From IMG/VR virus record IMGVR_UViG_3300021961_008712, positions 96,001 to 160,000 of that record: a stretch of 64,000 nt of DNA, one strand, 5' to 3'. The notes below the pieces were generated by a model. That model did not search any database, was not told where the DNA came from, and saw only the letters and a program-made list of their open reading frames with translations. How positions within the stretch are numbered: position 1 is the first letter of the stretch; every line of letters begins with the position of its first letter. A program made the translations under genes and the position numbers. Source of the DNA: a virus. Shown here in pieces: positions 2,081 through 56,144 of this stretch.

Positions 2081-3796
2081 ATGACATTAATGGTAGATAC
2101 CTCAACTTGGGAGGCAGGAAAAGATTATCCAGAATGGATGAACGAAGTTTCATTAGCAACTATCTCTAAAGGATATTTGTTACCTGGAGAAACTCCCCGT
2201 ACAGCATACAGACGTGTAGCAGAAACAGTAGCAAAAAGACTTGATCGACCTGACCTAGCTAATAAATTTTGGCGTTATATGTGGAAGGGTTGGTTGAACT
2301 TAGCCTCACCCGTTTTATCAAACACCGGTACAGATAAAGGATTACCTATCTCTTGTTTCGGTATTGATACTCCTGATTCTATTAGAGGAATTGGCCTTAC
2401 TAACGCTGAGTTAATGAGGCTAACTTCCTTAGGAGGTGGTGTAGGTATTGGACTTTCCAAAATTAGAGGAAGAGGGCAGAAAATTGGCAATGGAGATATT
2501 GGTCAATCTGAAGGAGTAATTCCTTGGGCTAAGATATACGACTCTACTATTATTGCAACTAACCAAGGCGCAGTTCGTAGAGGAGCAGCATCTGTTAACC
2601 TTGATATAGAACACCCAGATATTGAGGAATTCTTACAAATCAGAAGACCTAAAGGAGATCCTAACAGACAGTGTCTCAATCTACACCAATGTGTTACAAT
2701 TGGAGATGACTTTATGCGTAGGTTAGAAATGAGAGACCCTGATGCAATGCAGTTATGGGTAGAAATACTTAAATCTAGAGTAGAGACAGGTGAACCGTAT
2801 ATTATGTATAAGGACACTGTTAATAACGCTAATCCACCTGCATATAAAAGAAATAACCTAGAAGTATCTATGACAAATATCTGTTCTGAGATTACCCTCT
2901 TTACAGATGAAGAACACTCATTTATTTGCTGCTTATCCTCAGTCAACTTAACGAAATGGCATGAATGGAAAAATACAGATCTCATTGAGACAGCGATTTA
3001 TTTTCTTGACGGAGTATTAGAAGAATTTTTAGCTAAAACATCCGGTAGAGATTCGCTAATTAGAGCTCATAGATCTGCTAAAAAAGGAAGAGCGATTGGA
3101 TTAGGTGTTTTAGGATGGCATACATTCCTGCAGAATGAAAGAATACCTTTTACTTCTATTGCTGCTACTTCCTATACTCATCAGATATTTTCTGACATTA
3201 AAAATAAAGCAGAAGCTGCTTCTAGAAAATTAGCAGAAGAATACGGAGAACCAGTATGGTGCAAAGGAACTGGTATGAGAAACTCACATTTGATTGCAGT
3301 TGCTCCTACCGTTACTAACAGTACGATTGCCGGAGGAGTATCAGCTGGTATAGAACCGCTACCCGCAAACGTCTGGACGTTTAATTCCGCTAAAGGTACG
3401 TTTATTCGTAAGAATGAAGCATTAGTTAATTACCTAGAAGAAAGAGGAGCAAATACTGAAGAGGTATGGGATCAGATTATGAAGGATAGAGGATCTATTG
3501 CTAATTTACCCGAAGATGTTATGCCAGCAGAAGATAAACCCATCTTTTTAACATTTGCAGAAATTAATCAACTAGAATTAGTAAAGCAAGCTGGTATTAG
3601 ACAGCAGTATATTGATCAAACTCAATCATTAAACTTGGCTTTTGATCCAACAGATAGTCCTAAGTTTATTAACGAGGTACATCAAGCAGCTTGGAGAGAA
3701 GGAGTAAAGACTCTATATTATTTAAGAACAGATTCTGTAATTAATGGAGATATAGGTAGTAGAACATCTACTGATTGCTTAAGTTGTGATGGATAA
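2081..3796 (+). CDS. nrdA: ribonucleotide reductase class I alpha subunit, no ATP cone
   Basis: PISCF, TNICSEI, APT, KTLYY and C-terminal CLSCDG. Confidence 0.97.
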   Translation: MTLMVDTSTWEAGKDYPEWMNEVSLATISKGYLLPGETPRTAYRRVAETVAKRLDRPDLANKFWRYMWKGWLNLASPVLSNTGTDKGLPISCFGIDTPDSIRGIGLTNAELMRLTSLGGGVGIGLSKIRGRGQKIGNGDIGQSEGVIPWAKIYDSTIIATNQGAVRRGAASVNLDIEHPDIEEFLQIRRPKGDPNRQCLNLHQCVTIGDDFMRRLEMRDPDAMQLWVEILKSRVETGEPYIMYKDTVNNANPPAYKRNNLEVSMTNICSEITLFTDEEHSFICCLSSVNLTKWHEWKNTDLIETAIYFLDGVLEEFLAKTSGRDSLIRAHRSAKKGRAIGLGVLGWHTFLQNERIPFTSIAATSYTHQIFSDIKNKAEAASRKLAEEYGEPVWCKGTGMRNSHLIAVAPTVTNSTIAGGVSAGIEPLPANVWTFNSAKGTFIRKNEALVNYLEERGANTEEVWDQIMKDRGSIANLPEDVMPAEDKPIFLTFAEINQLELVKQAGIRQQYIDQTQSLNLAFDPTDSPKFINEVHQAAWREGVKTLYYLRTDSVINGDIGSRTSTDCLSCDG

Positions 3797-4334: not shown

Positions 4335-4364
4335 TTGCTATTCAGTAAATAAATTCGTATATTA
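4335..4364 (+). promoter_or_regulatory. Bacteroidota sigma70-type promoter TTG-N20-TATATTA (representative of ~18 copies)
   Basis: The same motif, mostly with a 20-nt spacer, recurs at 10271, 12795, 15438, 18382, 21231, 25008, 29969, 33349, 33867, 41176, 43684, 49475, 52045, 56058, 60790 and 63303 (TAG variant at 43020). It resembles the -33 TTG / -7 TAnnTTTG consensus. Confidence 0.85.
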
Positions 4365-5163: not shown

Positions 5164-5973
5164 ATGGCAAAAAATGTTGTTGTAAGTCTTTCTGGAGGGA
5201 TGGACTCCTCTACTTTACTACTTAGATGTTTATCTGAGTACGACAATGTAACAGCTTTATCTTTTGATTACGGTCAAAAGCATAGAGTAGAACTTGAAAG
5301 AGCTCAATCTTTAGTAGATTATCTAAATGATAATGTCTATTTTAGAAACGGTGATCAGATTAAGTATCAGGTTATTAAATTAGACGGGTTAGTAAATCTT
5401 CTTAACTCTGCTTTAGTAACCGGAGGTGCTGATGTACCAGAAGGACATTATGAGCAAGATAATATGAAAGCTACAGTAGTACCTAACAGAAACAAAATAT
5501 TTGCTTCTTTAGTTCAAGCAGTTGCTTTATCAGCAGCTAATGCTAATGGAAACAATACAGATATTGCATTAGGTATTCATGCTGGTGATCATGCTATCTA
5601 CCCTGACTGCCGTCAAGAGTTTAGAGATGCAGATGATGCTGCTTTTAGAATAGGTAACTGGGATGCTGAAAAGGTAGGTTACTTTACACCTTATTTAGAA
5701 ACTGATAAGTTTGGTATTCTACAAGATGGTGAAAAATTATGTAAGGATTTACAAATAGAATTCGATGAAGTTTACAAACGTACGAATACTTCTTACAAAC
5801 CTTACCCTTCAGGTAACTCGGATTATAAATCTGCTTCTTCCGTAGAACGTATTGAAGCGTTCATTAAGTTAGGTAGAAAAGATCCAGTTCAGTATGAAGA
5901 TGAGACAGGACCTGTGTCTTGGGAAGTAGCTAAGGCTGCAGTTGAAAAGGTATTAACCGATTACGTAGCTTAA
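5164..5973 (+). CDS. queC: 7-cyano-7-deazaguanine (preQ0) synthase
   Basis: SLSGGMDS, FDYGQKH, VPNRN, YPDCR. Confidence 0.95.
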   Translation: MAKNVVVSLSGGMDSSTLLLRCLSEYDNVTALSFDYGQKHRVELERAQSLVDYLNDNVYFRNGDQIKYQVIKLDGLVNLLNSALVTGGADVPEGHYEQDNMKATVVPNRNKIFASLVQAVALSAANANGNNTDIALGIHAGDHAIYPDCRQEFRDADDAAFRIGNWDAEKVGYFTPYLETDKFGILQDGEKLCKDLQIEFDEVYKRTNTSYKPYPSGNSDYKSASSVERIEAFIKLGRKDPVQYEDETGPVSWEVAKAAVEKVLTDYVA

Positions 5974-6053: not shown

Positions 6054-6127
6054 GCCTCCGTAGCTCAGTTGGCTAGAGCAGCTGATTTGTAATCAGCAGG
6101 TCGTGGGTTCGAATCCCTCTGGAGGCT
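6054..6127 (+). tRNA. tRNA-Thr (TGT)
   Basis: Acceptor GCCTCCG/TGGAGGC, D arm GCTC/GAGC, anticodon arm GCTGA-TTTGTAA-TCAGC, T loop TTCGAAT. CCA is not encoded. Confidence 0.96.
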
Positions 6128-8544: not shown

Positions 8545-10266
8545 ATGGCGAATTTCACTAACACAAAAATTAATCAGACTTTTCAAAGAGTCGTTCAAGT
8601 TAACGGCAATGCCGAACTACAGGACGGTCTAGGTAGACAATTGTCTGGTTCTATGGGTGATCTAACTGTTAACGGTACATTAGGTATCACTGGATATTCT
8701 GATGTATCTGCATCTTTAGCTCAACTTCATACTTTTAGTTCGTCATTAGACAATACCTTCGCTACAGATAATGAACTAGCAGCAGTTTCTAGCTCTCTTG
8801 CTTTAGAGACAGCACAACTATTAAATTTTAGTGCTTCTTTAGATGCAACTTTTGCTACTGATGCAGAATTAAGTAGCTTATCAAGCTCGATTTCTGCTAC
8901 ATACCTTTCTAATGATGAATGGATTTTCCACTCTGCTTCTATCAGAAACGACATTTTTGCAGACAGTGTTAGAATTGCCTTCTTTGAAAATAAAACTTTA
9001 GTTTCTGGTTCTAGTCAAATTGATTTAACTCAAACAACCAACTATAGTGCGATTTCTAGTTCTATAGCAGATCTACAAAATTTTAGTGCTTCTTTAGATG
9101 CAACTTTTGCTACTGATGCTGAATTGTCCGCACTTTCTAGTTCTGTTGCTTCTACATACCTTTCTAATGATGAATGGACTTTCCACTCAGCATCTATAAG
9201 AAATGATATCTTTGCAGATAGTGTCAGAATAGCTTTCTTTGAAAATAAAACTTTAGTTTCTGGTTCTAGTCAAATAAATCTTAGCCAAGCTACAGGAATC
9301 GCAGCACAAGCTATTACCGCATCCTATGCAATTTCTGCATCTCATGAAATTACTTATGAGCTATCATCTTCATATGCTAATTTTGCAACTACTGCTTCAC
9401 ATGCATTAAATGTACCTGATATTAGTGCTGTAAATGCTTATACAAGTTCTATAGATGCTAGAGTAATAAGCTTAGAGACGTTAAGTTCTTCTTTAGACAC
9501 ACTATTTCTATCAGAAGAAGAATGGACTTTCCATTCAGCCTCTATTAGAAATGATATTGCTTTTGATAGTAGTAGAATAGCAGTTTTAGAAAATAAAACT
9601 TTAGTAAGTAGTTCAGCCCAAATTACTGATTTTGGCTTTATTTAATCGTCACATACTGATATTGCAGCATTAAATTTATTTACAGGTTCGATACAAGCAG
9701 AAGTTAATAGTTTAAATGCAGCAACAAGTTCTTTCTTAACAAGTTTAACAGCCAACACATTAGATGAACTTGCTGATGTAAATGATTACAATGCATCTAC
9801 TATTACTGACGGTTACAGGTTAGCATGGGATAGTGGTAGTCAAGAATGGGCACCAGCACCTAGTAGTACGTTTAAAGGTACAACTCGATTATTTATTTCA
9901 ACTACCAGAAGTAATAGTTCAACATTTTTCTTCAATTCAATTACCCGTACAGCAACCGATTCTCCATCACCAGTTGCAGATAGTGCTTTCTTACTTACAT
10001 CAGCTTTACTTAGTAAAGTTACTATTTACTTAAGAAATGATGCCGCATCAGCAAATGCATGTACAGTGGAGGTATTCAAGAATGCAGATGGAGCAGGTTT
10101 TGCATCTGCTTCATCAATTGCTACTGATTCAGGTACGTTAAATACCGATGTAATAACTACATTTAGTTTTACTGGATTATCTTTAGCACAATTTGATTCT
10201 ATACACATCAAAGTTACGCCTACTATAGCAGGTGGACAATACTACGGTATAGTAATTATTGAGTAA
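8545..10266 (+). pseudogene. Ser/Ala-rich repeat protein (fibre or virion-like) interrupted by one in-frame TAA at 9643-9645
   Basis: The frame stays open from 9646 to 10266 with the same composition, so ORFs 8545-9645 and 10066-10266 are one frame. Confidence 0.75.
8824..9275 (+). repeat. intragenic direct repeat, 255-bp (85-aa) period, with a third partial copy near 9480-9625
   Basis: NFSASLDATFATDAELS...YLSNDEW.FHSASIRNDIFADSVRIAFFENKTLVSGSSQI starts at 8824 and again at 9079. Confidence 0.9.
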
Positions 10267-10317
10267 AAAGTTGCATATGAAATAAAAAGTTCTTATATTA
10301 TTATAATAGAAGACAAC

Positions 10318-10345
10318 AGTGTCGTAGCACCACTTTAAAAACACA
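10318..10345 (+). ncRNA. preQ1-I-like riboswitch aptamer
   Basis: AGTG-TCGTAGCAC-CACT-TTAAAAACACA, located between the promoter and ATG 10349 at the head of the queD/queE unit. Confidence 0.78.
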
Positions 10346-10348
10346 TTT

Positions 10349-10600
10349 ATGAAAACAGAAGAACAAAGGTTATTAGACGAACTCTACGATGTAGAGACAA
10401 GAAGAGTATCTAAAATTAAAGATCTCTCCACCTCACCCACACTTGAAGATTATCCCGACGCAAAAAAACATCAAATTGTGTCGTTTATTAAATCAGGAAT
10501 TCGTATATTAGGATATATACTTATTCCTTTTGATTTATTTTGGGCAGCAGGAATATTAGTATTATCAGAAGTTGTTGGAATATTAGAAGAGTTGGTATGA
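10349..10600 (+). CDS. small membrane protein, first gene after the riboswitch
   Basis: Hydrophobic C-terminal half (ILGYILIPF...AAGILVLSEVVGIL). Confidence 0.7.
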   Translation: MKTEEQRLLDELYDVETRRVSKIKDLSTSPTLEDYPDAKKHQIVSFIKSGIRILGYILIPFDLFWAAGILVLSEVVGILEELV

Positions 10601-10761
10601 TAGAGGTAGTTAAGCACACTTTAGGAATTTGCGGAGAGCATTGGCATCCTAGTGCACTTACAGTATTAGCTAGCAGTCCATTATTTGTAGCTACAGTTAA
10701 CTACATTAAATGTAAATGCGGCGGATTGTTTAATCATAAAAAAAGTTGTAATAATGAGTAA
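10597..10761 (+). CDS. small Cys/His-containing hypothetical protein (likely start ATG 10597)
   Basis: Overlaps both neighbours; HTLGICGEHWHP. Confidence 0.6.
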   Translation: MIEVVKHTLGICGEHWHPSALTVLASSPLFVATVNYIKCKCGGLFNHKKSCNNE

Positions 10762-11224
10762 ATTTCAATCAACAAAAGTATTTGATGGATTTAGTACCTG
10801 CTTTAGACAATGGAAAGCAGAAGATACTCATTGTAGGTTTCTACATGGGTATGGAGTTTCAATTAAAATTTGGTTCGAAGGTGAATTAGATGAAAGAAAC
10901 TGGGTATGGGACTTTGGCGGTATGAAAAGAGCTAAAGGTAAAATAGACGGTTTATCTCCTAAAGAATGGTTTGAGTATATGTTTGACCATACTGTTATTG
11001 TAGCAGAAGATGATCCGCAATTAGGAAATTATTTCAGAAAAATGGACCGTAACGGTACAATCCAACTGCGTGAAGTACCTGCTACTGGAGCAGAGAAGTT
11101 TGCCGAATTTGTGTACTCAAAAGTTAATCCTTTTATTGAGGAAGAAACTAACGGTAGAGTAACTATTACTAAAGTAGAATTCAGAGAACACGATAAAAAT
11201 TCAGCTATTTATGTCCCTAGGTAG
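10754..11224 (+). CDS. queD: 6-carboxytetrahydropterin synthase
   Basis: HCRFLHGY, DFG, FDH, E near the C-terminus; PTPS/QueD fold. Confidence 0.9.
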   Translation: MSKFQSTKVFDGFSTCFRQWKAEDTHCRFLHGYGVSIKIWFEGELDERNWVWDFGGMKRAKGKIDGLSPKEWFEYMFDHTVIVAEDDPQLGNYFRKMDRNGTIQLREVPATGAEKFAEFVYSKVNPFIEEETNGRVTITKVEFREHDKNSAIYVPR

Positions 11225-11987
11225 AATAGAAGATTATAATAAAGTACTACCCATCGTTGAACTTTATACTGCAGTACAATCTGAAGGTTCTAGACAAGGT
11301 TATCCGACTATTGTCATAAGAACAACAGGATGTACTCATAGATGCTACTTTGGAGAAGGTGGCTGGTGTGATAGCTGGTATACTTCTATTCACCCAGAAA
11401 AAGGTAGATATACCTTTAATGATATCATAGATATGTACGATAAAAATCCTCATATCTCAGAAATGATGTTAACCGGTGGTTCTCCTTCAATGCACGGCAA
11501 ATTAGTAAACGAATTAACACACCTAGCACATGAAAGAGGTATTTTTATCACTATGGAGAACGAAGGTAGTCATTACCTTGAGACCGATTATCCTATTGAT
11601 CTCCTGTCTATTAGCCCTAAGTTCTCTAATAGTGTTCCTATTATTGGCGTATCCACACCTCAAGGTGGTATAGTAGATGATAGAATGGTTAAACAGCATA
11701 ATAAGTATAGATTAAATTTAGACGCTATTAGAAAGTCAATTGCGTATCATAAGGACTACCATATTAAACCGGTATTAGATAAAGACTTAACTATATACAG
11801 CGAGGTTAGGCAGTTTTTAGATAGCCTAAATATTCCTAATGAAAAAGTCTGGATGATGCCAGCTGGAGATACAAGAGTTGCATTATTTGAAACTTATCCT
11901 GTAGTTATGGATTTTTGTAGAGATGAAGGTTACAGATTTACAGGAAGAGCACACATAATGGCATTTGATACACAACGAGAAGTATGA
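11211..11987 (+). CDS. queE: 7-carboxy-7-deazaguanine synthase (radical SAM)
   Basis: VQSEG, RTTGC..C..CDS, LTGGSP, ENEGS, SISPK. Confidence 0.92.
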   Translation: MSLGRIEDYNKVLPIVELYTAVQSEGSRQGYPTIVIRTTGCTHRCYFGEGGWCDSWYTSIHPEKGRYTFNDIIDMYDKNPHISEMMLTGGSPSMHGKLVNELTHLAHERGIFITMENEGSHYLETDYPIDLLSISPKFSNSVPIIGVSTPQGGIVDDRMVKQHNKYRLNLDAIRKSIAYHKDYHIKPVLDKDLTIYSEVRQFLDSLNIPNEKVWMMPAGDTRVALFETYPVVMDFCRDEGYRFTGRAHIMAFDTQREV

Positions 11988-12238
11988 GTTTTATTATAGG
12001 ATCAAAATGTATTGGTACTAAAGATGGAGCCTGTATTGCAGTCTGTCCAGTAGACTGTATTGCAGAAGGAGAAGAATCTATGTACATTAATCCTGAAGTA
12101 TGCATTGACTGTGGTGCATGTGTCCCGGAATGCCCTGTAGAAGCTATATTTGATACAGAAGAACAAGCAATCGCAGCCGGAGAATTAGAAGCAGTAAAAA
12201 AGAATTATCAATTTTATGGTTTAACATACAAACAATGA
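11984..12238 (+). CDS. dicluster ferredoxin
   Basis: C..KDGACIAVCPVDCI and CIDCGACVPECPVEAI. Confidence 0.93.
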   Translation: MSFIIGSKCIGTKDGACIAVCPVDCIAEGEESMYINPEVCIDCGACVPECPVEAIFDTEEQAIAAGELEAVKKNYQFYGLTYKQ

Positions 12239-12426
12239 CAGCAGAAGAATTTGTTATTTGGTTTAGAGGTTTTGTCAACGGTGCTCACCACTTTAATATT
12301 ACTCCACAGCAATGGGAGTACTTAAAGGAAAAACTAGATGAAGTAGAAAGTAAAAATACTCTAGCAGATTACACTGCCGGTAATTGGTTTATTAATAACA
12401 CATGGGAGAAAACAAAATCTACTTAA
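12235..12426 (+). CDS. hypothetical protein
   Basis: Translationally coupled ORF. Confidence 0.65.
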   Translation: MTAEEFVIWFRGFVNGAHHFNITPQQWEYLKEKLDEVESKNTLADYTAGNWFINNTWEKTKST

Positions 12427-12806
12427 CTTGGGAGGATGTCTATGAGCTATTAGACAAAATTCATGAACAAACAAAAGGAGAAATCAAATATGTAACCGGT
12501 ATTCCTAGAGGAGGAATTCTTTTAGCAGTACTTTATTCACATAGATTTAATGTACAGTACTTTGAATTTAAAAGTAATCATTATCATGATTTGTTAATTA
12601 TAGACGATATAGCTGATACAGGAGATACTTTTTTAAACTTAAAAGAAGACATAAAACTACCAAAAACAGCAGCACTTCATTATAAATCCACTTCTAAATT
12701 TAAACCTGATTTCTTCGGTAAGGAAGTACCAGGAGATTTCGGTTGGATAGTCTACCCTTGGGAAAAAAAAGATTCAAAACCAATTCAAGACTATTTGGAT
12801 AATTGA
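12402..12806 (+). CDS. type I purine phosphoribosyltransferase (Gpt/XGPRT-like)
   Basis: GIPRGG, PRPP motif LIIDDIADTGDT, WIVYPWE. Confidence 0.88.
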   Translation: MGENKIYLTWEDVYELLDKIHEQTKGEIKYVTGIPRGGILLAVLYSHRFNVQYFEFKSNHYHDLLIIDDIADTGDTFLNLKEDIKLPKTAALHYKSTSKFKPDFFGKEVPGDFGWIVYPWEKKDSKPIQDYLDN

Positions 12807-12835
12807 GCAAAAATTCGTATATTAAGATATAGATA

Positions 12836-12864
12836 ATGTGTCGCAGTACCACTTTAAAAACAAA
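12836..12864 (+). ncRNA. preQ1-I-like riboswitch aptamer upstream of folE
   Basis: (AT)GTG-TCGCAGTAC-CAC(TT)-TAAAAACAAA, after promoter 12795-12824 and before ATG 12871. Confidence 0.72.
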
Positions 12865-12870
12865 AAATTA

Positions 12871-13542
12871 ATGAATAACATTGAATTAGAATTAGTAAAA
12901 GAAGGATTTGCAAATGGTGTAGCCCCTGGGTTTCCTCTTACAGAAGTACAGAAAAGTGAAATGATTGAAGAAGCAGCATATGCTTATGGAAAGTTTCTAG
13001 ATGCTTTAGGATGTGACTGGAGAAATGACCCTAACTCAGCTGATACTCCTCGTAGAGTAGCTAAAGCATATGTAAGAGATTTATGGAGAGGACGTTATGA
13101 TGCAATGACTGAAATTACAGCATTCCCTTCTGATGGGTACAACGGTATCGTACAGGAGTCAAATATACCGGTGACGTCAATGTGTAGCCACCACCACCAA
13201 ACAATAGGTGGTCGTGTGAGTATTGCCTATGTACCGTCTGAGAATGGTAAAGTAGTAGGTCTGTCTAAACTCAACCGTATCGTCGAACACTTTGGACGAA
13301 GAGGTGCTATACAAGAGCAACTTACTGTAGCCATTCATAATGCAATCGATAAGATTTGTGAAGGTAACCTTGGAGTAGCTGTAATGATTGATGCAACTCA
13401 TAACTGTGTAAGTTGTAGAGGAGTTAAGCACCAAGGAGCTTCAATGCAGACAGCTAAACTATCAGGTTGCTTTCTTAACGAAGATTCTGCAAGAGCTGAG
13501 TTTTATAAAAACATAGAATTAGCAGGTAAATGTAGATATTAG
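12871..13542 (+). CDS. folE: GTP cyclohydrolase I
   Basis: TPRRVAK, SMCSHH, VVGLSKLNR, QEQLT, HNCVSCRG. Start moved to ATG 12871. Confidence 0.96.
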   Translation: MNNIELELVKEGFANGVAPGFPLTEVQKSEMIEEAAYAYGKFLDALGCDWRNDPNSADTPRRVAKAYVRDLWRGRYDAMTEITAFPSDGYNGIVQESNIPVTSMCSHHHQTIGGRVSIAYVPSENGKVVGLSKLNRIVEHFGRRGAIQEQLTVAIHNAIDKICEGNLGVAVMIDATHNCVSCRGVKHQGASMQTAKLSGCFLNEDSARAEFYKNIELAGKCRY

Positions 13543-13551
13543 GAGTATATT

Positions 13552-14277
13552 ATGTTTGAATGGATAAAAGAAAAATATGCGCACCTTGATAAAGACACTG
13601 TTCGCTTTAGAGCCGGAAGCCCAAACCCTATTATAAGGTTTGAAAATTTTCTTCCGGAAACAGAAGCATACAAACTCTATTATGAAAGCCAAAGTATACC
13701 AAATGTATACTGGAAAACTTTTGATAGAAATGGAAGTCATATGAAGGAGTTAAATAAAGTTGAACTTATGCCTATAGCATTCAATATTATTAACTACCTG
13801 AATAGCGGACCATTTTTAACTTACTTAGAGACATTAACAGGTATCGAAAGACTTATCCCAGATCCCCATTTAATAGGAGCAGGATACAGTAAGAGCTTTA
13901 ATGGTGATACCTTAAAGATACATACAGATTTTAACTGGAATAACGAATTAAGCCTTCATCGAGCATTAAGTTTAATAATCTATATTACACCAGAATGGAA
14001 GGCTGAATATGGAGGAGCATTGAGCTTTCTCGACAGAGATAGACAGCAAGAAATTTTTAAAGCTGATTGTTTATTTAATACAGCGTTAATTTGGAGACAT
14101 GGTAAATATGCTTTTCATGGATACCCAGATCCAATTCAATGTCCATCTCATTTGTCGAGAAATACTTTGAGACTGTTTTATTTTGTAAGTACCTCAGAAC
14201 ACAACCCAGATGATCCACCACACCGTAGTTTATACTGGTATGATGAAAAATTAAATGAACCTATAGATTTAAAATAA
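13552..14277 (+). CDS. 2OG-Fe(II) oxygenase
   Basis: HTD...H...R triad (IHTDFN, FHGY, RNTLRLFY). Confidence 0.88.
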   Translation: MFEWIKEKYAHLDKDTVRFRAGSPNPIIRFENFLPETEAYKLYYESQSIPNVYWKTFDRNGSHMKELNKVELMPIAFNIINYLNSGPFLTYLETLTGIERLIPDPHLIGAGYSKSFNGDTLKIHTDFNWNNELSLHRALSLIIYITPEWKAEYGGALSFLDRDRQQEIFKADCLFNTALIWRHGKYAFHGYPDPIQCPSHLSRNTLRLFYFVSTSEHNPDDPPHRSLYWYDEKLNEPIDLK

Positions 14278-14278
14278 A

Positions 14279-15448
14279 ATGATTTACGTAAATTTTGGAA
14301 AGAACTCGAGTGAAGACCATAAATGGTATTGGGCAGATAAAGGAGCTAAAGAATATACAGAATGGACCTCTGCTGACAAAAACCCTATTTTCTATTATGA
14401 TAGACATGATTTAGCTATGAGAAATCTCGAGTTTAGAGACTTTGTTACAGAAGAAATGTGGGAACATTTTAGAACTAACGAAGAAGCTCTAATAGTAATT
14501 AATTTTGCTGATGATTATATTAACTCAGCAGACTTAGATAGATTTGCCTCTGATATCAAGCTTAGAAATGTAGATAGTTCTAGAGTTATTTTTGTATTGA
14601 TGGATCAAAATTTCATTGAGTTTGTAGTTAATGGACTAGCAGCTAGAGGAATAAATAATATTTCAGCTGATTACATTAATATTCTCATGAAAAGGGTACC
14701 TCCTAGGTATAATGATGAAGCAATAAAGACTCATAAATTCTCAATATTTAGTAGAAATTATTGGGATTGGAGGTTTGATATTTATTTAGAACTTCTTAAA
14801 AGAGGAGTATTAGCAAATACTAATTTCTCTTTTCATAATTACAATCCTTATACAAATGAATTATACGATGAGGAAAGACTAAAAGCTGATGCGATTAAAA
14901 AGGGACACGTAATAACCCAAGAAGTAGAAGAATTTATTAAAGGTGTACCCTACGATTTGGGGAGCAGAAGTAACAAATTCTCTGATGTTATTTACGAAGC
15001 ATTAAACACATCAGACTACCATATAGTTGTTGAATCTCATTTTGATCCTTTTTTAGGAATAAATTATGAGTTTGCTAAAAAAGACTATAATGAATTAACA
15101 ATCTCTCCTGGATTTATCACAGAAAAAGTATGGAAACCTATTGCGTGTAAAAGACCGTTTTTTATTGCAGCAACTCCATTTATTTTGAGAGATTTGAAAA
15201 AGTTAGGATATAAAACTTTCGGAGAATTTATTGATGAATCCTATGATGAAATCGTAGATGATAAACAAAGATTACTTGCTCTAACTTCTGAAATTGAACG
15301 CATAAATAATCTTCCAACCGAAGAGTATAATCAGCTTCTAGCTTCTTTGCAAAATATAGTAGAGTATAACCATAGTGTATATATTAACCAGTGGGAAAAT
15401 GTAAATTTTACTAAGTACCCTTTTCTACATGGAATAGTTGTACTTTAA
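14279..15448 (+). CDS. putative glycosyltransferase (GT10/GT-B-like C-terminus)
   Basis: ITEKVWKPIACKRPF...LGYKTF...DESYD motif. Confidence 0.55.
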   Translation: MIYVNFGKNSSEDHKWYWADKGAKEYTEWTSADKNPIFYYDRHDLAMRNLEFRDFVTEEMWEHFRTNEEALIVINFADDYINSADLDRFASDIKLRNVDSSRVIFVLMDQNFIEFVVNGLAARGINNISADYINILMKRVPPRYNDEAIKTHKFSIFSRNYWDWRFDIYLELLKRGVLANTNFSFHNYNPYTNELYDEERLKADAIKKGHVITQEVEEFIKGVPYDLGSRSNKFSDVIYEALNTSDYHIVVESHFDPFLGINYEFAKKDYNELTISPGFITEKVWKPIACKRPFFIAATPFILRDLKKLGYKTFGEFIDESYDEIVDDKQRLLALTSEIERINNLPTEEYNQLLASLQNIVEYNHSVYINQWENVNFTKYPFLHGIVVL

Positions 15449-15472
15449 AATTATTTTTATTATATTATAGAT

Positions 15473-15875: not shown

Positions 15876-16409
15876 ATGGGTAAACAACTAACATTATTTA
15901 CAGAAGAAGAAATGGGACCTTGTAGCAAGCATGATAACGAGTATGTACCCTTTGTTTCAGAAGTAGAAGAATTCAATGCCATATTTGGCAAACCTAATAA
16001 CTATGAACCAACAATCCCAGCAAAAGCCGAGTGGGAGTTCGTATATAACTTTATACTCGAAGAATTGGAAGAATATAGACAAGCTTGCGAAGACGGAAAC
16101 ATCGTGGAAGTTTTGGATGCTTTGTGTGATATTACTTATGTTTCCCTTGGGAACGGTGTTATGTTACACGGCCTTAAGGATAAGATATGGCCAGCGTATC
16201 AAGAGGTTCAAGCGAGTAATCTTAGTAAAGCTTGCTCTACTGAAGAAGAAGCCGCACAGACTGTCACCGTACGAGCTAAAGAACAGGGTGAGCCTTGTCA
16301 TTATGAAAAAGTTAATGGGAAGTTCATTGTCTACAGAACAAGAGATAGAAAAGTAATGAAATCAGTTAATTACTTTAGACCAGATTTAACTAAGTACTTT
16401 AATGGTTAA
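15876..16409 (+). CDS. MazG-like (PRA-PH/DR2231 type) nucleoside triphosphate pyrophosphatase
   Basis: EELEE, EVLDALCDITYV, EVQASNLSK. Confidence 0.85.
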   Translation: MGKQLTLFTEEEMGPCSKHDNEYVPFVSEVEEFNAIFGKPNNYEPTIPAKAEWEFVYNFILEELEEYRQACEDGNIVEVLDALCDITYVSLGNGVMLHGLKDKIWPAYQEVQASNLSKACSTEEEAAQTVTVRAKEQGEPCHYEKVNGKFIVYRTRDRKVMKSVNYFRPDLTKYFNG

Positions 16410-16602: not shown

Positions 16603-17143
16603 ACCTATATTAATTTTTGGAGATAGTTTTAGTTCCAACTGGGGCAAAGATTCAAGAAGAAGTTGGGTAGATATTATTTCGAAGAAATTTGATGTTGTTA
16701 ATGTCGCGGAAGCAGGAGTAGGAGAATATAAAATTTTTTCTCAAATAAAGTCGTTAGATCTGAATAATTTTTCGTATATTATAGGTAATCATACGTCACA
16801 TTCTCGTGTGCATTCTAGACAGTCAATTCACAATACCGTAATACATGGTAATTGTGATTTACTTTATCTAGACAGTATGCACTTAAAAGAAGCAAGATGG
16901 TTTTTTGAAAATGTGTATGATGATGATTATTTTAAATTTACTTATGAACTAATAAGGGATAAGATTAATAGTAAATTACAAGGTTATAGAAGGTTTATTT
17001 TTGACCCTTTTTATTCAGAATATAAAGACTCAGTAAGTTTTGTAAATAAGTGGAAATTTGATTCTAATAATAAAAATCACTTTGATGCAAAAACGAATAT
17101 TGAGATAGCAGAATTAATAAAAAATAAAATAGTTTATGGTTAG
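16592..17143 (+). CDS. SGNH hydrolase-like protein
   Basis: FGDSFS, G in block II, NH near the C-terminus. Confidence 0.65.
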   Translation: MKNKPILIFGDSFSSNWGKDSRRSWVDIISKKFDVVNVAEAGVGEYKIFSQIKSLDLNNFSYIIGNHTSHSRVHSRQSIHNTVIHGNCDLLYLDSMHLKEARWFFENVYDDDYFKFTYELIRDKINSKLQGYRRFIFDPFYSEYKDSVSFVNKWKFDSNNKNHFDAKTNIEIAELIKNKIVYG

Positions 17144-17957
17144 AATAGCTCACGAGAGTCCTAAAAGCATCTTTGATACTGTACAGAAGTTTACAGATTA
17201 CGATTATGCATTAGTTCATCTATTTGAAGAAGATGAAGAGTACTTAAATATGTTTAAAAAAGCTGTAAGTAGAGGGAGAGAAGTAATTCTCGATAACTCT
17301 ATTTTTGAGTTAGAAGAAGCTTTTGATGCAGATAGATTTGCATACTGGATTAAAGAATTGAGACCTACTTGGTATATTGTTCCGGATGCATTAGAGGATT
17401 CTAAGCGAACTATGAATCAAATGGCTGAATGGAATATGAAATACTCAAACGTTCCAGGTAAGAAAATTGGAGTTGTTCAGGGTAAGACATATGAGCAAAT
17501 TAAAGCTTGCTACATCTTTATGGATGAAATCGCAAAGGTAGACATGATTGCTATCTCTTTTGACTATTCGTATTATACTGAATCTGTCCCTCATCCTAAC
17601 AAATACGTAAGTTGGATGCTTGGGAGAGTTAAACTACTCGGAGACTTAATGAGAGACGGTGTGATAAACGAGAAGAAGCCTCATCACCTATTAGGATGTG
17701 GATTACCTCAAGAATTCCAATACTATAAACACTCAGACTATAATTGGCTGTATTCCTTAGATACCTCTAATCCGGTAGTACACGGTATTAAGGGTATAGA
17801 GTATAAAGACCAAGGACTTTGGAGTAAAGAATCGCAGAAACTATTTGAGATGATTAATAGTGAAGTAAGTATGGATCAACTTCATCTCATTAAGTATAAT
17901 ATTCAAAAATTTAGATGGTTTACAAATGGGCAGACGGACGTGGATAGCATTTTTTAG
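17136..17957 (+). CDS. dpdA: TGT-fold 7-deazaguanine insertion protein (DpdA-like, probably DpdA3 type)
   Basis: ILDNS, VPD, GVVQG, HHLLG and SLDTS follow the TGT motif order; located in the que cluster. Confidence 0.72.
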   Translation: MVRIAHESPKSIFDTVQKFTDYDYALVHLFEEDEEYLNMFKKAVSRGREVILDNSIFELEEAFDADRFAYWIKELRPTWYIVPDALEDSKRTMNQMAEWNMKYSNVPGKKIGVVQGKTYEQIKACYIFMDEIAKVDMIAISFDYSYYTESVPHPNKYVSWMLGRVKLLGDLMRDGVINEKKPHHLLGCGLPQEFQYYKHSDYNWLYSLDTSNPVVHGIKGIEYKDQGLWSKESQKLFEMINSEVSMDQLHLIKYNIQKFRWFTNGQTDVDSIF

Positions 17958-18468
17958 TCAGACAGGCGGAGAAATTGCTGACCTATCAGAAAAGCTTGGA
18001 TTTTGGCCTGATAGAATTATTACAAATGAAAGACCAGATCATCTCAGAACTGTAGATCCTAGAATTGAGAAAAGAGGGTACTTTACTTTTAGTAATAAAC
18101 CAGACCTAGAAGAATATGAAGATCTTCTGGTTTACTTTCCTGGAGCATTAATAACTCTTCACGGTTGGTTGAGAATTATGCCTTCTGAAATCTGTGAGAA
18201 ATTTAGCGTGTTTAATGGGCATCCTGGCTTAATAACATTATATCCAGAACTTAAAGGTAAGGATCCTCAAATTAGAGCGTATGAAGGAAAGTATGAAAAA
18301 ATAGGAGCTGTTTTACATAAAGTTACAGCAGGTGTAGATGAAGGTCCTATAATTGCGGAAGATTATTTTCTTAACGAAGGGTTGGAGCTTAACGATATTT
18401 TTCGTAAATTAAAAGATATCAGTTTATTTATGTGGTTTGTATACTTAACAACGGTTTTAAATGATTAA
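17926..18468 (+). CDS. PurN-like formyltransferase (DpdN-like, putative preQ1 formyltransferase)
   Basis: GWLRIM, NGHPG, HKVTAGVDEGPII formyl-THF motifs; overlaps the dpdA-like gene. Confidence 0.8.
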   Translation: MGRRTWIAFFSQTGGEIADLSEKLGFWPDRIITNERPDHLRTVDPRIEKRGYFTFSNKPDLEEYEDLLVYFPGALITLHGWLRIMPSEICEKFSVFNGHPGLITLYPELKGKDPQIRAYEGKYEKIGAVLHKVTAGVDEGPIIAEDYFLNEGLELNDIFRKLKDISLFMWFVYLTTVLND

Positions 18469-19493: not shown

Positions 19494-20402
19494 ATGGAAG
19501 AAGTAAAGAATTATCAAGACGTTGTAGCAATTGCATCTAAACACTTAGGTAAGGTAGGCGGTGATGGGTATAAGGATACTTATGATCCTTCACTACTAGT
19601 TAAAATTCCTCGTATCTTAAATAGAGAAGGATATGGTCTTTCCGGAAAAGAATTTGTAGGAGTTGATGTATGGAATGCTTACGAAGTATCAGCTATTACT
19701 ACTAAAGGTCAACCTGTTGCTGGTATGCTTAAAATCGTATGTCCCGCGAATTCGGAATTTCACGTAGAATCTAAGTCTATAAAATTGTATTTAAACTCTT
19801 TTAATATGACGCAGATTGGTAGTACTGCTGCTGACTGTATTACCGGTATTGAAGCTAGAGTAGAGAGAGACTTAAGAGAACTTTTAGAAGCAGACGTTAC
19901 AGCAAGATTCTTTACCTCAGAAATGGAATTTGAAAGTCTAACTTTCCAGGGATACGATCCTTTAGATCAAATAACTAACTTAGATGCTATAGACTTTACA
20001 GCCTTTAAATCTGATGCTTCTCAACTAGATGTTGAAGAGCATTCATCTAGTACCGAAATAAAGTACTCCTCTAATTTACTTAGATCAAATTGTAGAGTTA
20101 CTAATCAACCGGATTGGGGTGATGTGTTTATTCGAATGGAGGGTAAAAATATTCCCACACCAGAATCAGTAGCTAAGTATATTGTTTCTCATAGAACAGT
20201 TAGTCACTTCCATGAGGAGATATGTGAAATGATTTTTAAACATTTGATGGATGCTTGTAACCCTGATCAGTTAATGGTGGCTTGTTTATATACTCGAAGA
20301 GGAGGTATTGATATTAATCCTATTAGAGCTACACACTCATTATATATACCGGACTTCTTTACTGAGCCTCTATTTACTATTAAGAAGACCCTTAGACAAT
20401 AA
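19494..20402 (+). CDS. queF: NADPH-dependent preQ0 reductase, bimodular type
   Basis: ESKSIKLYLNS, SNCRVTNQPDWG, FHEEICE, YTRRGGIDINP. Confidence 0.95.
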   Translation: MEEVKNYQDVVAIASKHLGKVGGDGYKDTYDPSLLVKIPRILNREGYGLSGKEFVGVDVWNAYEVSAITTKGQPVAGMLKIVCPANSEFHVESKSIKLYLNSFNMTQIGSTAADCITGIEARVERDLRELLEADVTARFFTSEMEFESLTFQGYDPLDQITNLDAIDFTAFKSDASQLDVEEHSSSTEIKYSSNLLRSNCRVTNQPDWGDVFIRMEGKNIPTPESVAKYIVSHRTVSHFHEEICEMIFKHLMDACNPDQLMVACLYTRRGGIDINPIRATHSLYIPDFFTEPLFTIKKTLRQ

Positions 20403-31770: not shown

Positions 31771-33180
31771 ATGAAAGGAACACTAATATCTTTCGATTTT
31801 GTAAAGGACTCAAACGGGGATTTAAAGTTCCTGGAAATGAATACTGACACAACCATTTCCCAGCCGGACTTGGATAATCACATTTCCTGGACTTCTCTAA
31901 TAGACGTTATGTCCAGTTCTAACAGCACGACATTAGATATAATTTACAAACCCGAGATTCACAACCATATTGTGGCAAGTTTAGAAGCAGCTGTTCAAGC
32001 ATCTGCTCCGTTTATTACTACAGTTAATAAACACCAAGAAGATCTTCACTCAAATTTCCCTACAGCTGTTGAAGATTCAGCTGAGAAGTTTATTTTGAGA
32101 ATGGCTTATGATGATAACGCTATCATCGACTCGTACTACTGTAAAGAAGCAGATAAAGCTGTTAGACTTTTTACAGAATATAATTCTGCTAGCTTAGCAG
32201 TAAATTACTTCTACAGCGGTAGTGACGCTGAAATTAACAATCTTCTAGAAGTTAACAACCCAGCTTGGTACCCAGATGTAGTAATAAAAAAGAAACAAGG
32301 TGTTCTTGATAACCTAGAGTTTATTAAAGTCTTAGATGCTGCAGGATGGGAAGAAGTTAAAACTACTTATAAAGAAGACTATATAATCGAAAATTACCAC
32401 GTTTCACCAGAAGCTGAAGCAGATGGAGTTGTTCAATCTTTCCGTCACTTATGTGTTGCATTTGGAGGAGGATTAGAACAGGCTCACCTAGGTACATTTA
32501 TTCAATGTGCTCAATTTAGTACTCCTGATAATTTAACAACTGAAGGAGCAACTTCTTATTTGCTTCCTAAGAAACATTACTACGAATATTCTACTAGTAC
32601 ACCAAAAGAGAAAAGCAGATTACATGGTGTATACTTTACAGATAGATTTATGTCAGGCTCAGGAGAGCCAATCGAAAGTGAAGACATTACTGCAGGTACT
32701 GTAATGAAGTCTTACTATATTCCAACTATTCCAGATACAGATGATCCTACTAAGTATTCTTCTTGGTCTCATAGTGGAAAAGTACTTCCTGCAGGATCAC
32801 AAGCTACTTCATCTTTAGCTGCATCTCAGCCTTTATTCTTCCAAGATAAGCAAGGTGTGGTATTCGAATTGAAGCCATCAGGTAGTACAAGTCCTGTATA
32901 TTTAGGAATGAATGCTGCTGTTATTACATATAACACAGGATCAGATTCTTATGCTTTCAGAAGCGTTGTTAACTTAAATTCTGACAAAGATTTCTTATTT
33001 GACTTAAATGGAAGTTTAGTTCCTATTGAGTATAATAACTTTGTAGTACTTAATCAGCCTACAGGTAGCTTCATCGTAGCAGATACTGAACCTTTCGATT
33101 TGCTTGTTGTTGATACAGATGCTGATCCAGATATCATTGCAGTAGCAATCCACAACGCAAAAATTGAACCACCTAAATAA
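31771..33180 (+). CDS. ATP-grasp-like protein with C-terminal Hint (intein-like) domain
   Basis: N-terminal DFVKDSNGDLKFLEMNT, PDVVIKK; C-terminal EDITAGTVMKS...IHN. Confidence 0.6.
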   Translation: MKGTLISFDFVKDSNGDLKFLEMNTDTTISQPDLDNHISWTSLIDVMSSSNSTTLDIIYKPEIHNHIVASLEAAVQASAPFITTVNKHQEDLHSNFPTAVEDSAEKFILRMAYDDNAIIDSYYCKEADKAVRLFTEYNSASLAVNYFYSGSDAEINNLLEVNNPAWYPDVVIKKKQGVLDNLEFIKVLDAAGWEEVKTTYKEDYIIENYHVSPEAEADGVVQSFRHLCVAFGGGLEQAHLGTFIQCAQFSTPDNLTTEGATSYLLPKKHYYEYSTSTPKEKSRLHGVYFTDRFMSGSGEPIESEDITAGTVMKSYYIPTIPDTDDPTKYSSWSHSGKVLPAGSQATSSLAASQPLFFQDKQGVVFELKPSGSTSPVYLGMNAAVITYNTGSDSYAFRSVVNLNSDKDFLFDLNGSLVPIEYNNFVVLNQPTGSFIVADTEPFDLLVVDTDADPDIIAVAIHNAKIEPPK

Positions 33181-40262: not shown

Positions 40263-41186
40263 ATGTTGTTAAAAATTGGCTCAAAAGGAGAACTTGTAAA
40301 GGACGTACAAGAGGTAGTTGGTGTTACAGCCGATGGTCACTTTGGTCCTGGTACGGAAGCTGCAGTAAAAAAATGGCAAGCAGCTAATGGATTGACTGCC
40401 GATGGATTAGTAGGAAGGGGAACGTTAGGTAAAATGGGCTTAGCCGATACTGATGCCTCATTAGCCGTAGAAGCTTCAACTAAACCTACTGGAAACTATA
40501 CTAAAAATAAGTACACTACATCAAACGGATTAGAAGTAGTAGAGTATTTTATGCCTAGTGATGAATATTTACCTGGCCCAGTAAAACCTGAGTGGGTATT
40601 TTTACACCATACTGCCGGATGGCATAACCCTTACCAGACAGTTAAAGCTTGGGATGCTGATACTATTGGAAAAATAGCTACTGAGTTTGTAATGGGTGGA
40701 CCGTCAGTTAAAGGAAATGATGATCAATACGACGGAGAAATGGTACAAGCATTTCCGGCTGGCAATTGGGGCTACCATTTAGGTAAAAACGGTTCTCAAA
40801 CTATGCATAAAAATTCTGTAGGTATAGAAGTATGTAACTTTGGATACGTAGTTAATGGAAAGACATATGCTGGAGCATCTGTTGATTCTTCACAGATAGT
40901 TAAATTAGCTAAACCTTTCCGCGGACATACAGATTGGCATAGATACTCAGATAAGCAAATAGAGGTATTGCAAAAATGGATACTTTGGATTGCAGAAAGA
41001 GACAGCATAGATGTACGAGCAGGACTTCCTGCTTTGATTAAAAAGAATGGAGCAGACGCTTTTGAATTCAACGAAGATGCTTATTATGGAAAAGTAAAAG
41101 GTCTGTGGACTCATACTAATACACGTAAAGATAAAGTAGACATGTTCCCTCAACAGGAATTAATGGACATGTTAGTTGGATTGTAA
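40263..41186 (+). CDS. endolysin: PG-binding domain plus Zn N-acetylmuramoyl-L-alanine amidase
   Basis: ADGHFGPGT/ADGLVG repeats; LHHTAG, SVGIEV, H...KVD. Confidence 0.9.
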   Translation: MLLKIGSKGELVKDVQEVVGVTADGHFGPGTEAAVKKWQAANGLTADGLVGRGTLGKMGLADTDASLAVEASTKPTGNYTKNKYTTSNGLEVVEYFMPSDEYLPGPVKPEWVFLHHTAGWHNPYQTVKAWDADTIGKIATEFVMGGPSVKGNDDQYDGEMVQAFPAGNWGYHLGKNGSQTMHKNSVGIEVCNFGYVVNGKTYAGASVDSSQIVKLAKPFRGHTDWHRYSDKQIEVLQKWILWIAERDSIDVRAGLPALIKKNGADAFEFNEDAYYGKVKGLWTHTNTRKDKVDMFPQQELMDMLVGL

Positions 41187-41210
41187 AAGATTTATTACTA
41201 TATTAATTAT

Positions 41211-55390: not shown

Positions 55391-56144
55391 TTACGAGAGA
55401 ATAAACTTACTCAAAGATGTATTTAAAGGTGAGACTGTTTATATAGTTACCCCTGGTCCTTCTCTCACTACTTTAGATAGAAATAAGTTAGTTGAAAAAC
55501 TTAAAGGTAAACCTGTCTTGGCTTGTAAACAAGCCTATGATTATGTTAAAGAAGTAGCTACATTTCATTTAATGTCCTGCTACTCTTATCAACCATACGA
55601 ATACTATTCAGATGATACGATTGTACATTGGCAGCTGACAGCAATGAATATGCCTCACGAAATCAATCGAATTAATAATGAGTGGAAATCTCCTGCTGAT
55701 ATACTAATACCTTGTTATTCTACTCCTTGGGTAGATATGTACAATACTACAGCATATAGTAGAAGATTTTCTCAGTTTGAAACTTACTCAACAGGAAAAA
55801 TAATATGGGGTCCAGGTATAATGTATGAGTCTGGTTTTCCGCTAGCTATGCATCTAGGAGCTAAAGAAATAGTAACGATTGGTTGGGATATAGGAGATTT
55901 GTCTAAATTTGAAAATAACCCTAGACATAAGTTAGGAGATGATTTATGGATCAAAGAACATGCTCAAAGTCTATATAAAACCCATGCCGGATCAGGACCC
56001 GATTATGAAGAATTGAAAGAGACTATAGACTCTACAAAAGAAATGTATGATTACTTCTTGGAAAAACAAATTAAAGTTCGTATATTATCTAATACAAGCC
56101 CAGCAGATAGCAGATTTGAACGTGTTACTTTAGATGAATTATAA
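55353..56144 (+). CDS. Maf/DUF115-like protein
   Basis: FKGETVYIVTPGPSL, HLGAKEIVTIGWD; likely start ATG 55353. Confidence 0.65.
   Translation: MELKKIIQKTQDSYERINLLKDVFKGETVYIVTPGPSLTTLDRNKLVEKLKGKPVLACKQAYDYVKEVATFHLMSCYSYQPYEYYSDDTIVHWQLTAMNMPHEINRINNEWKSPADILIPCYSTPWVDMYNTTAYSRRFSQFETYSTGKIIWGPGIMYESGFPLAMHLGAKEIVTIGWDIGDLSKFENNPRHKLGDDLWIKEHAQSLYKTHAGSGPDYEELKETIDSTKEMYDYFLEKQIKVRILSNTSPADSRFERVTLDEL

Follow-up and report, generated by a model that had tools for sequence, protein, structure and literature searches.

Class I riboswitches for 7-aminomethyl-7-deazaguanine (preQ1) read their ligand through U6, a specificity C (which in type II follows an A) and the final A of loop 3 (L3), with a G5-C16 pair as the floor of the pocket and C7-G11-C30 as its ceiling (PMC11625349). 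In the upper stem of the Thermoanaerobacter tengcongensis (Tte) aptamer, G11-C30 and C9-G33 flank the non-canonical pairs G8-A31 and A10-A32 (PMC7641330). Here we describe two short elements in a stretch of 64,000 nucleotides (nt) of viral DNA (hereafter the window; positions 96,001 to 160,000 of IMG/VR record IMGVR_UViG_3300021961_008712), where they lie in the leaders of the queD-queE and folE genes of a phage. We consider it likely, from the conserved fold and its genomic setting, that each is the aptamer of a translational riboswitch of the class I type II preQ1 fold, in an unusually compact form, which would turn translation off when the product of the pathway accumulates. The initial annotation of this DNA had proposed preQ1-I-like riboswitches gating the phage's own deazaguanine synthesis, and this overall reading is supported by the comparative sequence evidence given below.

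Riboswitches were described as rare in phage genomes in a 2017 survey, which listed two cyclic di-GMP (c-di-GMP)-I and two glutamine examples (PMC5473149); in contrast, one small aptamer is found here in more than 100 distinct phage leaders. The phage glutamine and prophage c-di-GMP-I riboswitches are phage-borne as well, but they belong to other classes with other ligands, and none of them controls a DNA-modification pathway (PMC5473149, PMC9004378). In the literature searched we found no mention of preQ1 riboswitches in the deazaguanine clusters of phages and no link between riboswitches and phage DNA hypermodification, as had been supposed at the outset. Also, the work on 7-deazaguanine in phage DNA, including the paper on the related Flavobacterium phage vB_FspM_immuto (immuto), in whose DNA formyl-preQ1 replaces every G (PMC10516641), is silent on the regulation of the pathway. 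If our reading is correct, these elements would be the first known control point of the 7-deazaguanine pathway, would tell which free base the phage monitors, and would represent both the first riboswitch tied to DNA hypermodification and a natural model of riboswitch control without a Shine-Dalgarno (SD) sequence. Riboswitches in mRNAs that lack SD sequences were named an open challenge in a 2024 review of preQ1 riboswitches (PMC11625349); the phage leaders are natural examples of this kind, and a cultured relative exists.

Two preQ1-I-like elements in the leaders of phage que genes

Written as RNA in the order 5' strand of the lower stem (P1), loop, 3' strand of P1, L3 and 3' side of the upper stem (P2), element 1 is A-GUG / UCGUAGCAC / CAC-U / UUAAAAA / C-A-C-A and element 2 is (U)GUG / UCGCAGUAC / CAC(U) / UUAAAAA / C-A-A-A (positions in Table 1). 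The near-identity of the two copies, from which the initial annotation had started, was recovered by sequence matching: they have in common the 25-mer GTGTCGYAGYACCACTTTAAAAACA, at window positions 10319-10343 and 12838-12862, which gives exactly two matches in the 64 kb even with up to three mismatches and none in 100 shuffles. With a covariance model built from 35 core variants of relatives (model R1) and run with its filters off, the third-best window site reached 10.4 bits, against the two scores listed in Table 1. A loose regular-expression search of the whole 169,750-bp genome found no further copy.

Both elements fall between genes: element 1 between the end of an open reading frame (ORF) at 10266 and the ATG at 10349, element 2 between the stop codon of a phosphoribosyltransferase (PRTase) gene at 12806 and the folE ATG at 12871, with aptamer-to-ATG gaps of 6 and 9 nt, respectively. 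The gene heads first assigned to them stood in part, in that folE follows element 2 and the queD unit follows element 1, but the first gene behind element 1 is an ORF of 83 amino acids (aa) and not queD.

Judged by sequence, element 1 is typical of the phage class, and its core recurs unchanged in at least 67 IMG/VR loci. The loop of element 2, in turn, is a singleton among 105 unique elements; this copy keeps all pocket nucleotides with a weaker P1 and without the pair 9-33, and is thus probably the leakier switch. From an AUG at 12836, a frame of 11 codons reads through aptamer 2 to a UAA that overlaps the folE AUG (UAAUG); this frame (12836-12871) is not conserved in related folE leaders.

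Covariation, ligand pocket and class membership

P1 comprises four base pairs (bp), with 99.5% of cells paired across 94 distinct sequences (99.4-99.5% over sets of 94 and 83 sequences). Its outer pair is AU in 49 of the 94, CG in 26, GC in 11 and UA in 6, the second is GC in 68 and CG in 26, the third UA in 83 and AU in 11, and the closing G-C is invariant. Three of the four pairs carry double substitutions. The P1 covariation score is 0.485 versus 0.084 in shuffles, none of 500 shuffles reaches it, and slid registers collapse. For the pair 9-33 the counts are UA 38, UG 13, CG 9, GC 3 and unpaired 20, and all 12 sequences with C-G or G-C at these positions are double changes. The U-A pair that had been pointed out in element 1 belongs to this covarying position, the equivalent of Tte C9-G33 (PMC7641330), and the covariation across related phages that had been proposed as a check was found for P1 and 9-33 alike. 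As neither of its positions varies, the invariant G11-C30 is beyond the reach of covariation; A10 and A31 are likewise invariant in the phage class and G8 nearly so. Positions 12 and 32 show only a like-with-like correlation (C with C, A with A), and pairing between them was rejected since the coupling tracks queD-type versus folE-type lineages.

The 9-nt loop reads U6, C7, G8, Y9, A10, G11, N12, A13 and the specificity C, and it is followed by a 7-nt A-rich L3 (7 nt in 75 of 85 unique elements, range 6-9) and by C30-A31-N32-R33. With stem and tail fixed and the loop left free, just six recurrent loops were obtained (UCGUAGCAC, UCACAGCAC, UCGGAGCAC, UCGUAGUAC, UCACAGUAC and UCGUAGAAC), across which U6, C7, A10, G11, A13 and the final C are invariant; the retained loop, ligand-pairing C and A-rich tail that had been attributed to the elements thus persist when the loop is unconstrained. 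As in class I aptamers generally, the window elements have the specificity C (C10330/C12849), the U that opens the loop (U10322/U12841) and the last A of L3 (A10341/A12860), all three of which are also invariant among the covariance-model matches, and P1 is closed by a G-C pair as the pocket floor. The type II signature is found in the AC before the P1 3' strand and in the ceiling formed by G11-C30 with C7. The Tte register of P2, in which 9-33 flanks 10-32 and 8-31, is also seen, with 9-33 not formed in element 2. Further, the element stands in que/7-deazaguanine gene leaders at every phage locus examined and in the bacterial copies, as class I riboswitches do. All the pocket features named in PMC11625349 are present in the phage element.

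Among solved structures the Tte aptamer (class I type II, PDB 3Q50; PMC7641330, PMC11625349) is closest. It is likewise an H-type pseudoknot with a G-C floor and with U6, C7, G8, A10 and G11; AC precedes the P1 3' strand, L3 is rich in A and its last nucleotide, next to C30, is an A, and the phage upper-stem register (11-30, 8-31, 10-32, 9-33) is that of the Tte crystal structure. The loop of element 2 equals the Tte loop UCGCAGUAAC with one A removed (Tte sequence: PMC10639078). Control is translational in Tte and, judging from the leader layout, would be so in the phage. The differences are of size and setting: P1 has 4 bp in the phage versus 5 in Tte, L2 has 3 nt versus 4 (the initial annotation had given the loop as one nt shorter), and L3 has 7 nt versus 9. 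The 3' strand of P2 is A-C/A-N in the phage, whereas in Tte it is part of the AAGG SD sequence, and the phage element is followed by a start codon within 2-12 nt and serves genes of DNA rather than tRNA modification.

The preQ1-I riboswitch of the Bacillus subtilis queCDEF operon (type II, transcriptional) has the same pocket class, in that UAG stands in its loop, AC precedes the 3' strand of P1 and the tail is of the AUAAAAAAC type, and, like the bacterial copies described below, it controls a queCDE(F) operon. It differs in its canonical 4-bp P2 (CUAG/CUAA), 6-nt L2 and terminator platform, where the phage element has two Watson-Crick P2 pairs and no terminator. The type I riboswitch of Carnobacterium antarcticum is reported to exert control through a ligand-driven pseudoknot and not through SD pairing (PMC8752633, PMC10018353), a precedent that makes an SD-free mechanism plausible. 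Type I aptamers are marked by a UU motif, by UC preceding the P1 3' strand and by a stack of two ligands, in contrast to the AC and U-C of the phage element, and a UU motif together with a pyrimidine-rich loop and occlusion of AAGG marks type III (PMC11625349). Membership in types I and III was rejected, as the phage loop begins with U-C and contains purines (UCGUAGCAC), AC stands before the P1 3' strand and there is no AAGG. The other preQ1 classes, preQ1-II (RF01054) and preQ1-III (RF02680), gave no match in a scan of all 4227 Rfam families; they are HLout pseudoknots of about 80-100 nt and are also ruled out because the leader measures just 47-49 nt from promoter box to ATG. On this sequence evidence we see in the element a new, compact form of preQ1-I type II that occurs in a new biological setting, and not a new class.

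A changed ligand has to be considered at this point. With L2 one nt, L3 two nt and P1 one bp shorter than in Tte, the pocket could be reshaped, and the same fold might have become a specificity variant for 7-carboxy-7-deazaguanine (CDG) or for 7-formamidomethyl-7-deazaguanine as a base or nucleotide form; the formyl-preQ1 of immuto (PMC10516641), the PRTase gene inside the regulated operon and the failure of the Rfam model would all agree with this. We nevertheless regard another ligand as unlikely, given that every preQ1-contacting nucleotide of the solved class I structures is unchanged and that the identical loop and tail occur at queCDE or queDE in Thalassospira, Vibrionaceae and Marinomonas, where preQ1 is the expected product (DpdA and the formyltransferase were not searched for in these bacteria).

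Distribution in phages and bacteria

A scan of IMG/VR for the exact core returned 68 loci with 70 occurrences. Enough downstream sequence is available for 66 of the 70, and all of these lie a few nt 5' of an ATG heading small ORF-queD-queE..., queD, queE or folE, even though the proteins at these loci are just 35-90% identical to those of the window and the flanks differ. A stem-free pattern search brought AGUG/CACU at 78 loci and GGAG/CUCC at 18, together with UGAG/CUCA, GGUG/CACC and UGUG/CACA; the GGAG/CUCC class includes the cultured immuto, in which the element is found 5' of folE only (MW353175, about 32,362-32,391; L075:4852-4881). Model R1 gave 68 matches in 80 FolE-centred loci, all on the FolE strand and either just 5' of folE or heading the queD operon. 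The collection amounts to 105 distinct element sequences. No element was found in the que leaders of Cellulophaga phage phi13:1 and Chryseobacterium phage MA9V-3. Loop and tail matches without a pairing stem were set aside as chance, lacking either the A-rich spacer with ATG or the que genes (loci L072-L074, L103, L107); the same verdict was reached for L149, L155, L163, L178 and L185.

Two further loci deserve mention. A 5.9-kb contig labelled as part of a Verrucomicrobiales metagenome-assembled genome (MAG; NYWG01000135.1) has an AGUG element at a queD-type leader and a UGAG element before folE, and probably represents a phage contig that was placed in a bacterial MAG by binning. At locus L242 (3920-4000), a variant before folE reads GGUG UCGUAGUUC CACC followed by the long tail GUCAUAAAUAAAUUAAAAC; its P1 3' strand is preceded by UC, the signature of type I, and R1 gave it no score.

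The cellular search, in which one genome per prokaryotic species was scanned for loop and tail, found the same loop and tail with a P1 of CCUG/CAGG in about 30 Thalassospira genomes, four Vibrio and two Marinomonas, with a single match in each such genome. In Thalassospira the element lies 12-18 nt 5' of queC-queD-queE and after an upstream hairpin; this GC-rich hairpin, GGAAGGAUGUUCCUUCC, adjoins P1 (L145:3032-3048 and other loci) and resembles the optional P0 of the B. subtilis preQ1-I riboswitch. In Vibrionaceae and Marinomonas (L296, L300-L303) the element precedes queD-queE with a hairpin between them, and there is also a conserved GUGCUGCAUUGUU ... AACAAUGCA sequestor hairpin that abuts the queD AUG. 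The sequestor 5' side, GUGCUGC, is complementary to the aptamer loop GUAGCAC, with UGC common to the loop pairing and the sequestor, so that from its sequence the hairpin looks like the sequestor of an anti-sequestor/sequestor expression platform. That unrelated lineages combine one aptamer with different expression platforms, as is typical of riboswitches, speaks for the sensing of a metabolite and against a phage protein's binding site.

A hairpin with an A-rich tail could also serve as the binding site of a translational repressor or RNA chaperone of phage or host, and the extreme invariance of loop and tail would suit sequence-specific recognition by a protein, as would the conserved first downstream gene, whose protein has no assigned function. 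Against this stand the bacterial queCDE leaders, which have the element without the phage ORF, the membrane-type appearance of the small ORF product, and the loci where the aptamer lies directly 5' of queD, queE or folE and the ORF is not the first gene. The invariant positions moreover match the preQ1 pocket of the solved structures one for one, and the 9-33 pair covaries, U-G wobbles included. We therefore hold a protein site to be very improbable.

Several results weigh against the preQ1 riboswitch reading itself. The check with Infernal and the Rfam PreQ1 model (RF00522, gathering cut-off 39 bits) that had been recommended was negative: there was no match on the window at that cut-off, none at E<=10 on slices of 201 and 221 nt, none on the Thalassospira copy (a slice of 71 nt) and none at the element sites in the whole phage genome, where the best match elsewhere had 12.5 bits. 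P1, L2 and L3 are each shorter than in the Tte sequence checked, and L2 is also shorter than in that of B. subtilis. Thermodynamic folding predicts P1 in neither window leader, with unremarkable z-scores, and the pair 9-33 is unpaired in 24% of the distinct sequences and in element 2 (C-A). The invariance of pattern-fixed columns is partly by construction, as the covariation sets were gathered with patterns fixing loop or tail and filtered for at least three of the four stem pairs. As for distribution, the element is missing from 39 of the 80 nearest FolE loci, including the two closest (FolE 89% identical); these nearest relatives, L199 (3906-4000, 1000-1045) and L200, keep homologous promoters but have neither aptamer. 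Finally, no match was found in 151 sampled Bacteroidota genomes with the covariance model, a search of low sensitivity in which 48 candidates were scored per genome.

Some of these points can be placed. In a control, only one of 14 reference genomes passed the RF00522 cut-off, which indicates a narrow model, and five proteobacterial genomes likewise gave only weak RF00522 matches elsewhere. Rfam scans of the window, the slices and the cellular copies returned nothing relevant except a tRNA. Since the Rfam PreQ1 model misses the motif, current annotation pipelines overlook it. When the 30-nt cores were folded, element 1 preferred a competing GUGU/GCAC hairpin and element 2 formed just a 3-bp P1 core at -0.1 kcal/mol; we take minimum free energy folding to be uninformative because the fold is a ligand-dependent pseudoknot. 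The stem and 9-33 results are fair tests, and for the fixed columns the R1 matches and the loop-free search provide a partial correction. In the closest relatives the promoters lead into a short plain leader, from which the aptamer appears as a dispensable module that was gained or lost among close phages.

Start sites, pathway genes and the proposed feedback control

Each element follows a promoter-like TTG-N20-TATATTA box and is followed within a few nt by an ATG, as had been noted initially. The box occurs seven times in the window, always on the + strand, where 0.63 copies are expected. A TATATT-like box lies upstream in 101 of 104 unique phage leaders, and in 92 of these 101 it is preceded by a TTG 15-27 nt further up. 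The distance from box to ATG is 6-24 nt at promoters of the same class with a close start codon and 49 and 47 nt at the two que leaders, and hence the aptamer looks like an inserted module. In the 104 leaders the ATG comes 2-12 nt after C30 (mode 6), which places the whole knot within or at the edge of the ribosome footprint on the mRNA. The SD-less context that had been assumed is borne out, as an SD-like 4-mer precedes just 6.6% of the long ORFs and the upstream regions contain 40-54% A.

The ligand would be free preQ1, or its precursor 7-cyano-7-deazaguanine (preQ0), made by the phage FolE-QueD-QueE-QueC-QueF route. It would base pair with the specificity C and be recognised by U6 and the terminal A of L3, and its binding would dock the A-rich tail in the P1 minor groove and close P2. 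The folded knot would then leave no unstructured A-rich region for initiation and keep the 30S subunit from loading in a phage that does without SD sequences. Translation of the first cistron would fall once the free base exceeds the demand of DpdA and replication, which would affect the 83-aa ORF followed by queD-queE-ferredoxin-PRTase in one unit and folE followed by the oxygenase and the 389-aa protein in the other. In this way the pathway would be controlled at its entry, where GTP is consumed (FolE), and at the two steps that follow (QueD and QueE). Switching off by occlusion is proposed because the 3' edge of the knot is near the AUG and the phage makes no use of SD sequences.

The same leader could instead be a constitutive structure that stabilises the mRNA, enhances translation or serves as an ON switch, without feedback repression, and A-rich leaders do aid initiation in SD-less systems. 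A generic enhancer, however, needs neither the association with que genes nor a conserved ligand pocket, and the position of the 3' edge of the knot inside the AUG ribosome footprint favours occlusion; in Vibrionaceae the folded aptamer would, from its sequence, free the sequestor to form beside the AUG. A constitutive leader accordingly seems to us improbable, and we retain the product-triggered OFF switch. We further contend, at what we would call roughly even chances for the statement as a whole, that the elements represent an uncatalogued minimal class I preQ1 subtype of about 28 nt, in which P1 has 4 bp and P2 two Watson-Crick pairs. This subtype would be common among phages of marine and fresh waters, occur in a few proteobacterial lineages and, in phages, act as an SD-free product sensor that throttles the synthesis of the guanine-replacing 7-deazaguanine.

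Table 1. Elements, promoter-like boxes and genes discussed in the text (window coordinates)
Feature	Position	Strand	Basis or remark
Aptamer 1	10318..10345	+	model R1, 51.2 bits
Aptamer 1, P1	AGTG 10318-10321 (5' strand); CACT 10331-10334 (3' strand)	+
Aptamer 1, loop (L1/P2 5'/L2)	TCGTAGCAC at 10322-10330	+	specificity C = 10330
Aptamer 1, L3 and tail	TTAAAAA 10335-10341; C10342; ACA 10343-10345	+	ATG 10349
Aptamer 1, P2 3' side	C10342; A10345	+	C10342 pairs with G10327; A10345 pairs with U10325
Aptamer 2 (divergent copy)	12837..12864	+	model R1, 40.9 bits
Aptamer 2, P1	(T)GTG 12837-12840; CAC(T) 12850-12853	+	pairs 12838-12840/12850-12852; U12837-U12853 mismatch
Aptamer 2, loop	TCGCAGTAC at 12841-12849	+	specificity C = 12849
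Aptamer 2, L3 and tail	TTAAAAA 12854-12860; C12861, then AAA	+	ATG 12871
Aptamer 2, P2	C12861	+	C12861 pairs with G12846; C12844 and A12864 unpaired
Promoter-like box TTG-N20-TATATTA, 5' of aptamer 1	10271..10300	+	read in sequence, motif count
Promoter-like box TTG-N20-TATATTA, 5' of aptamer 2	12795..12824	+	sequence, motif count; overlaps end of PRTase gene
Other TTG-N20-TATATTA copies	3691-3720, 4335-4364, 15438-15467, 41176-41205, 56058-56087	+
83-aa ORF, first gene after aptamer 1	10349..10600	+	ORF call; no Pfam, PHROG or NCBIfam match
QueD	10754-11224	+	Pfam, PHROGs, NCBIfam
QueE	11211-11987	+	Pfam, PHROGs, NCBIfam
4Fe-4S ferredoxin	11984-12238	+	Pfam, PHROGs, NCBIfam
63-aa ORF	12235-12426	+
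Xanthine/guanine-type PRTase	12402-12806	+	Pfam, PHROGs, NCBIfam
FolE, head of unit 2	12871-13542	+	Pfam
2-Oxoglutarate (2OG)-Fe(II) oxygenase, unit 2	13552-14277	+	Pfam
389-aa protein, unit 2	14279-15448	+	no family or PDB match
QueC (Pfam match range)	5176..5868	+	PF06508, 133 bits; G000:101176-101868
DpdA	17136-17933	+	tblastn with immuto protein, 75.6% identity
PurN-like formyltransferase	17935-18447	+	tblastn with immuto protein, 52% identity
QueF, two QueF-domain matches in one 305-aa frame	19755..20336	+	PF14489, 52.4 and 19 bits
tRNA gene, just 3' of QueC	6054-6127		67.8 bits

The window belongs to a virus record of 169,750 bp whose nearest cultured relatives are immuto and Cellulophaga phages. 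As the initial annotation had it, the deazaguanine pathway is the phage's own: the full preQ1 route (FolE, QueD, QueE, QueC, QueF) is encoded together with DpdA and a PurN-like formyltransferase. DpdA was missed by a Pfam search for tRNA-guanine transglycosylase and was picked up by tblastn with the immuto protein. The proteins of unit 1 (10754..12806) are 47-72% identical to their immuto counterparts. Unit 2 spans 12871..15448, and the next promoter-like box is at 15438-15467. The oxygenase and the 389-aa protein behind folE in this unit may be further modification enzymes.

Family and PDB searches gave no match for the 83-aa ORF and the 389-aa protein. The former has more than 1000 metagenomic homologues, all of them unnamed; its N-terminus is variable, while its hydrophobic C-terminal half is conserved (from about YPDAKK), and it looks from its sequence like a small membrane protein. 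It is found almost always between aptamer and queD and is the first gene in most phage loci. The PRTase gene lies inside the operon headed by element 1, with a MazG-like pyrophosphohydrolase (15876-16409) nearby, a combination suggestive of a route for the deazaguanine base at the level of nucleotides. At two of the other promoter-like boxes the ATG comes just 6 nt after the box (15473 and 41211), which suggests leaderless or near-leaderless mRNAs.

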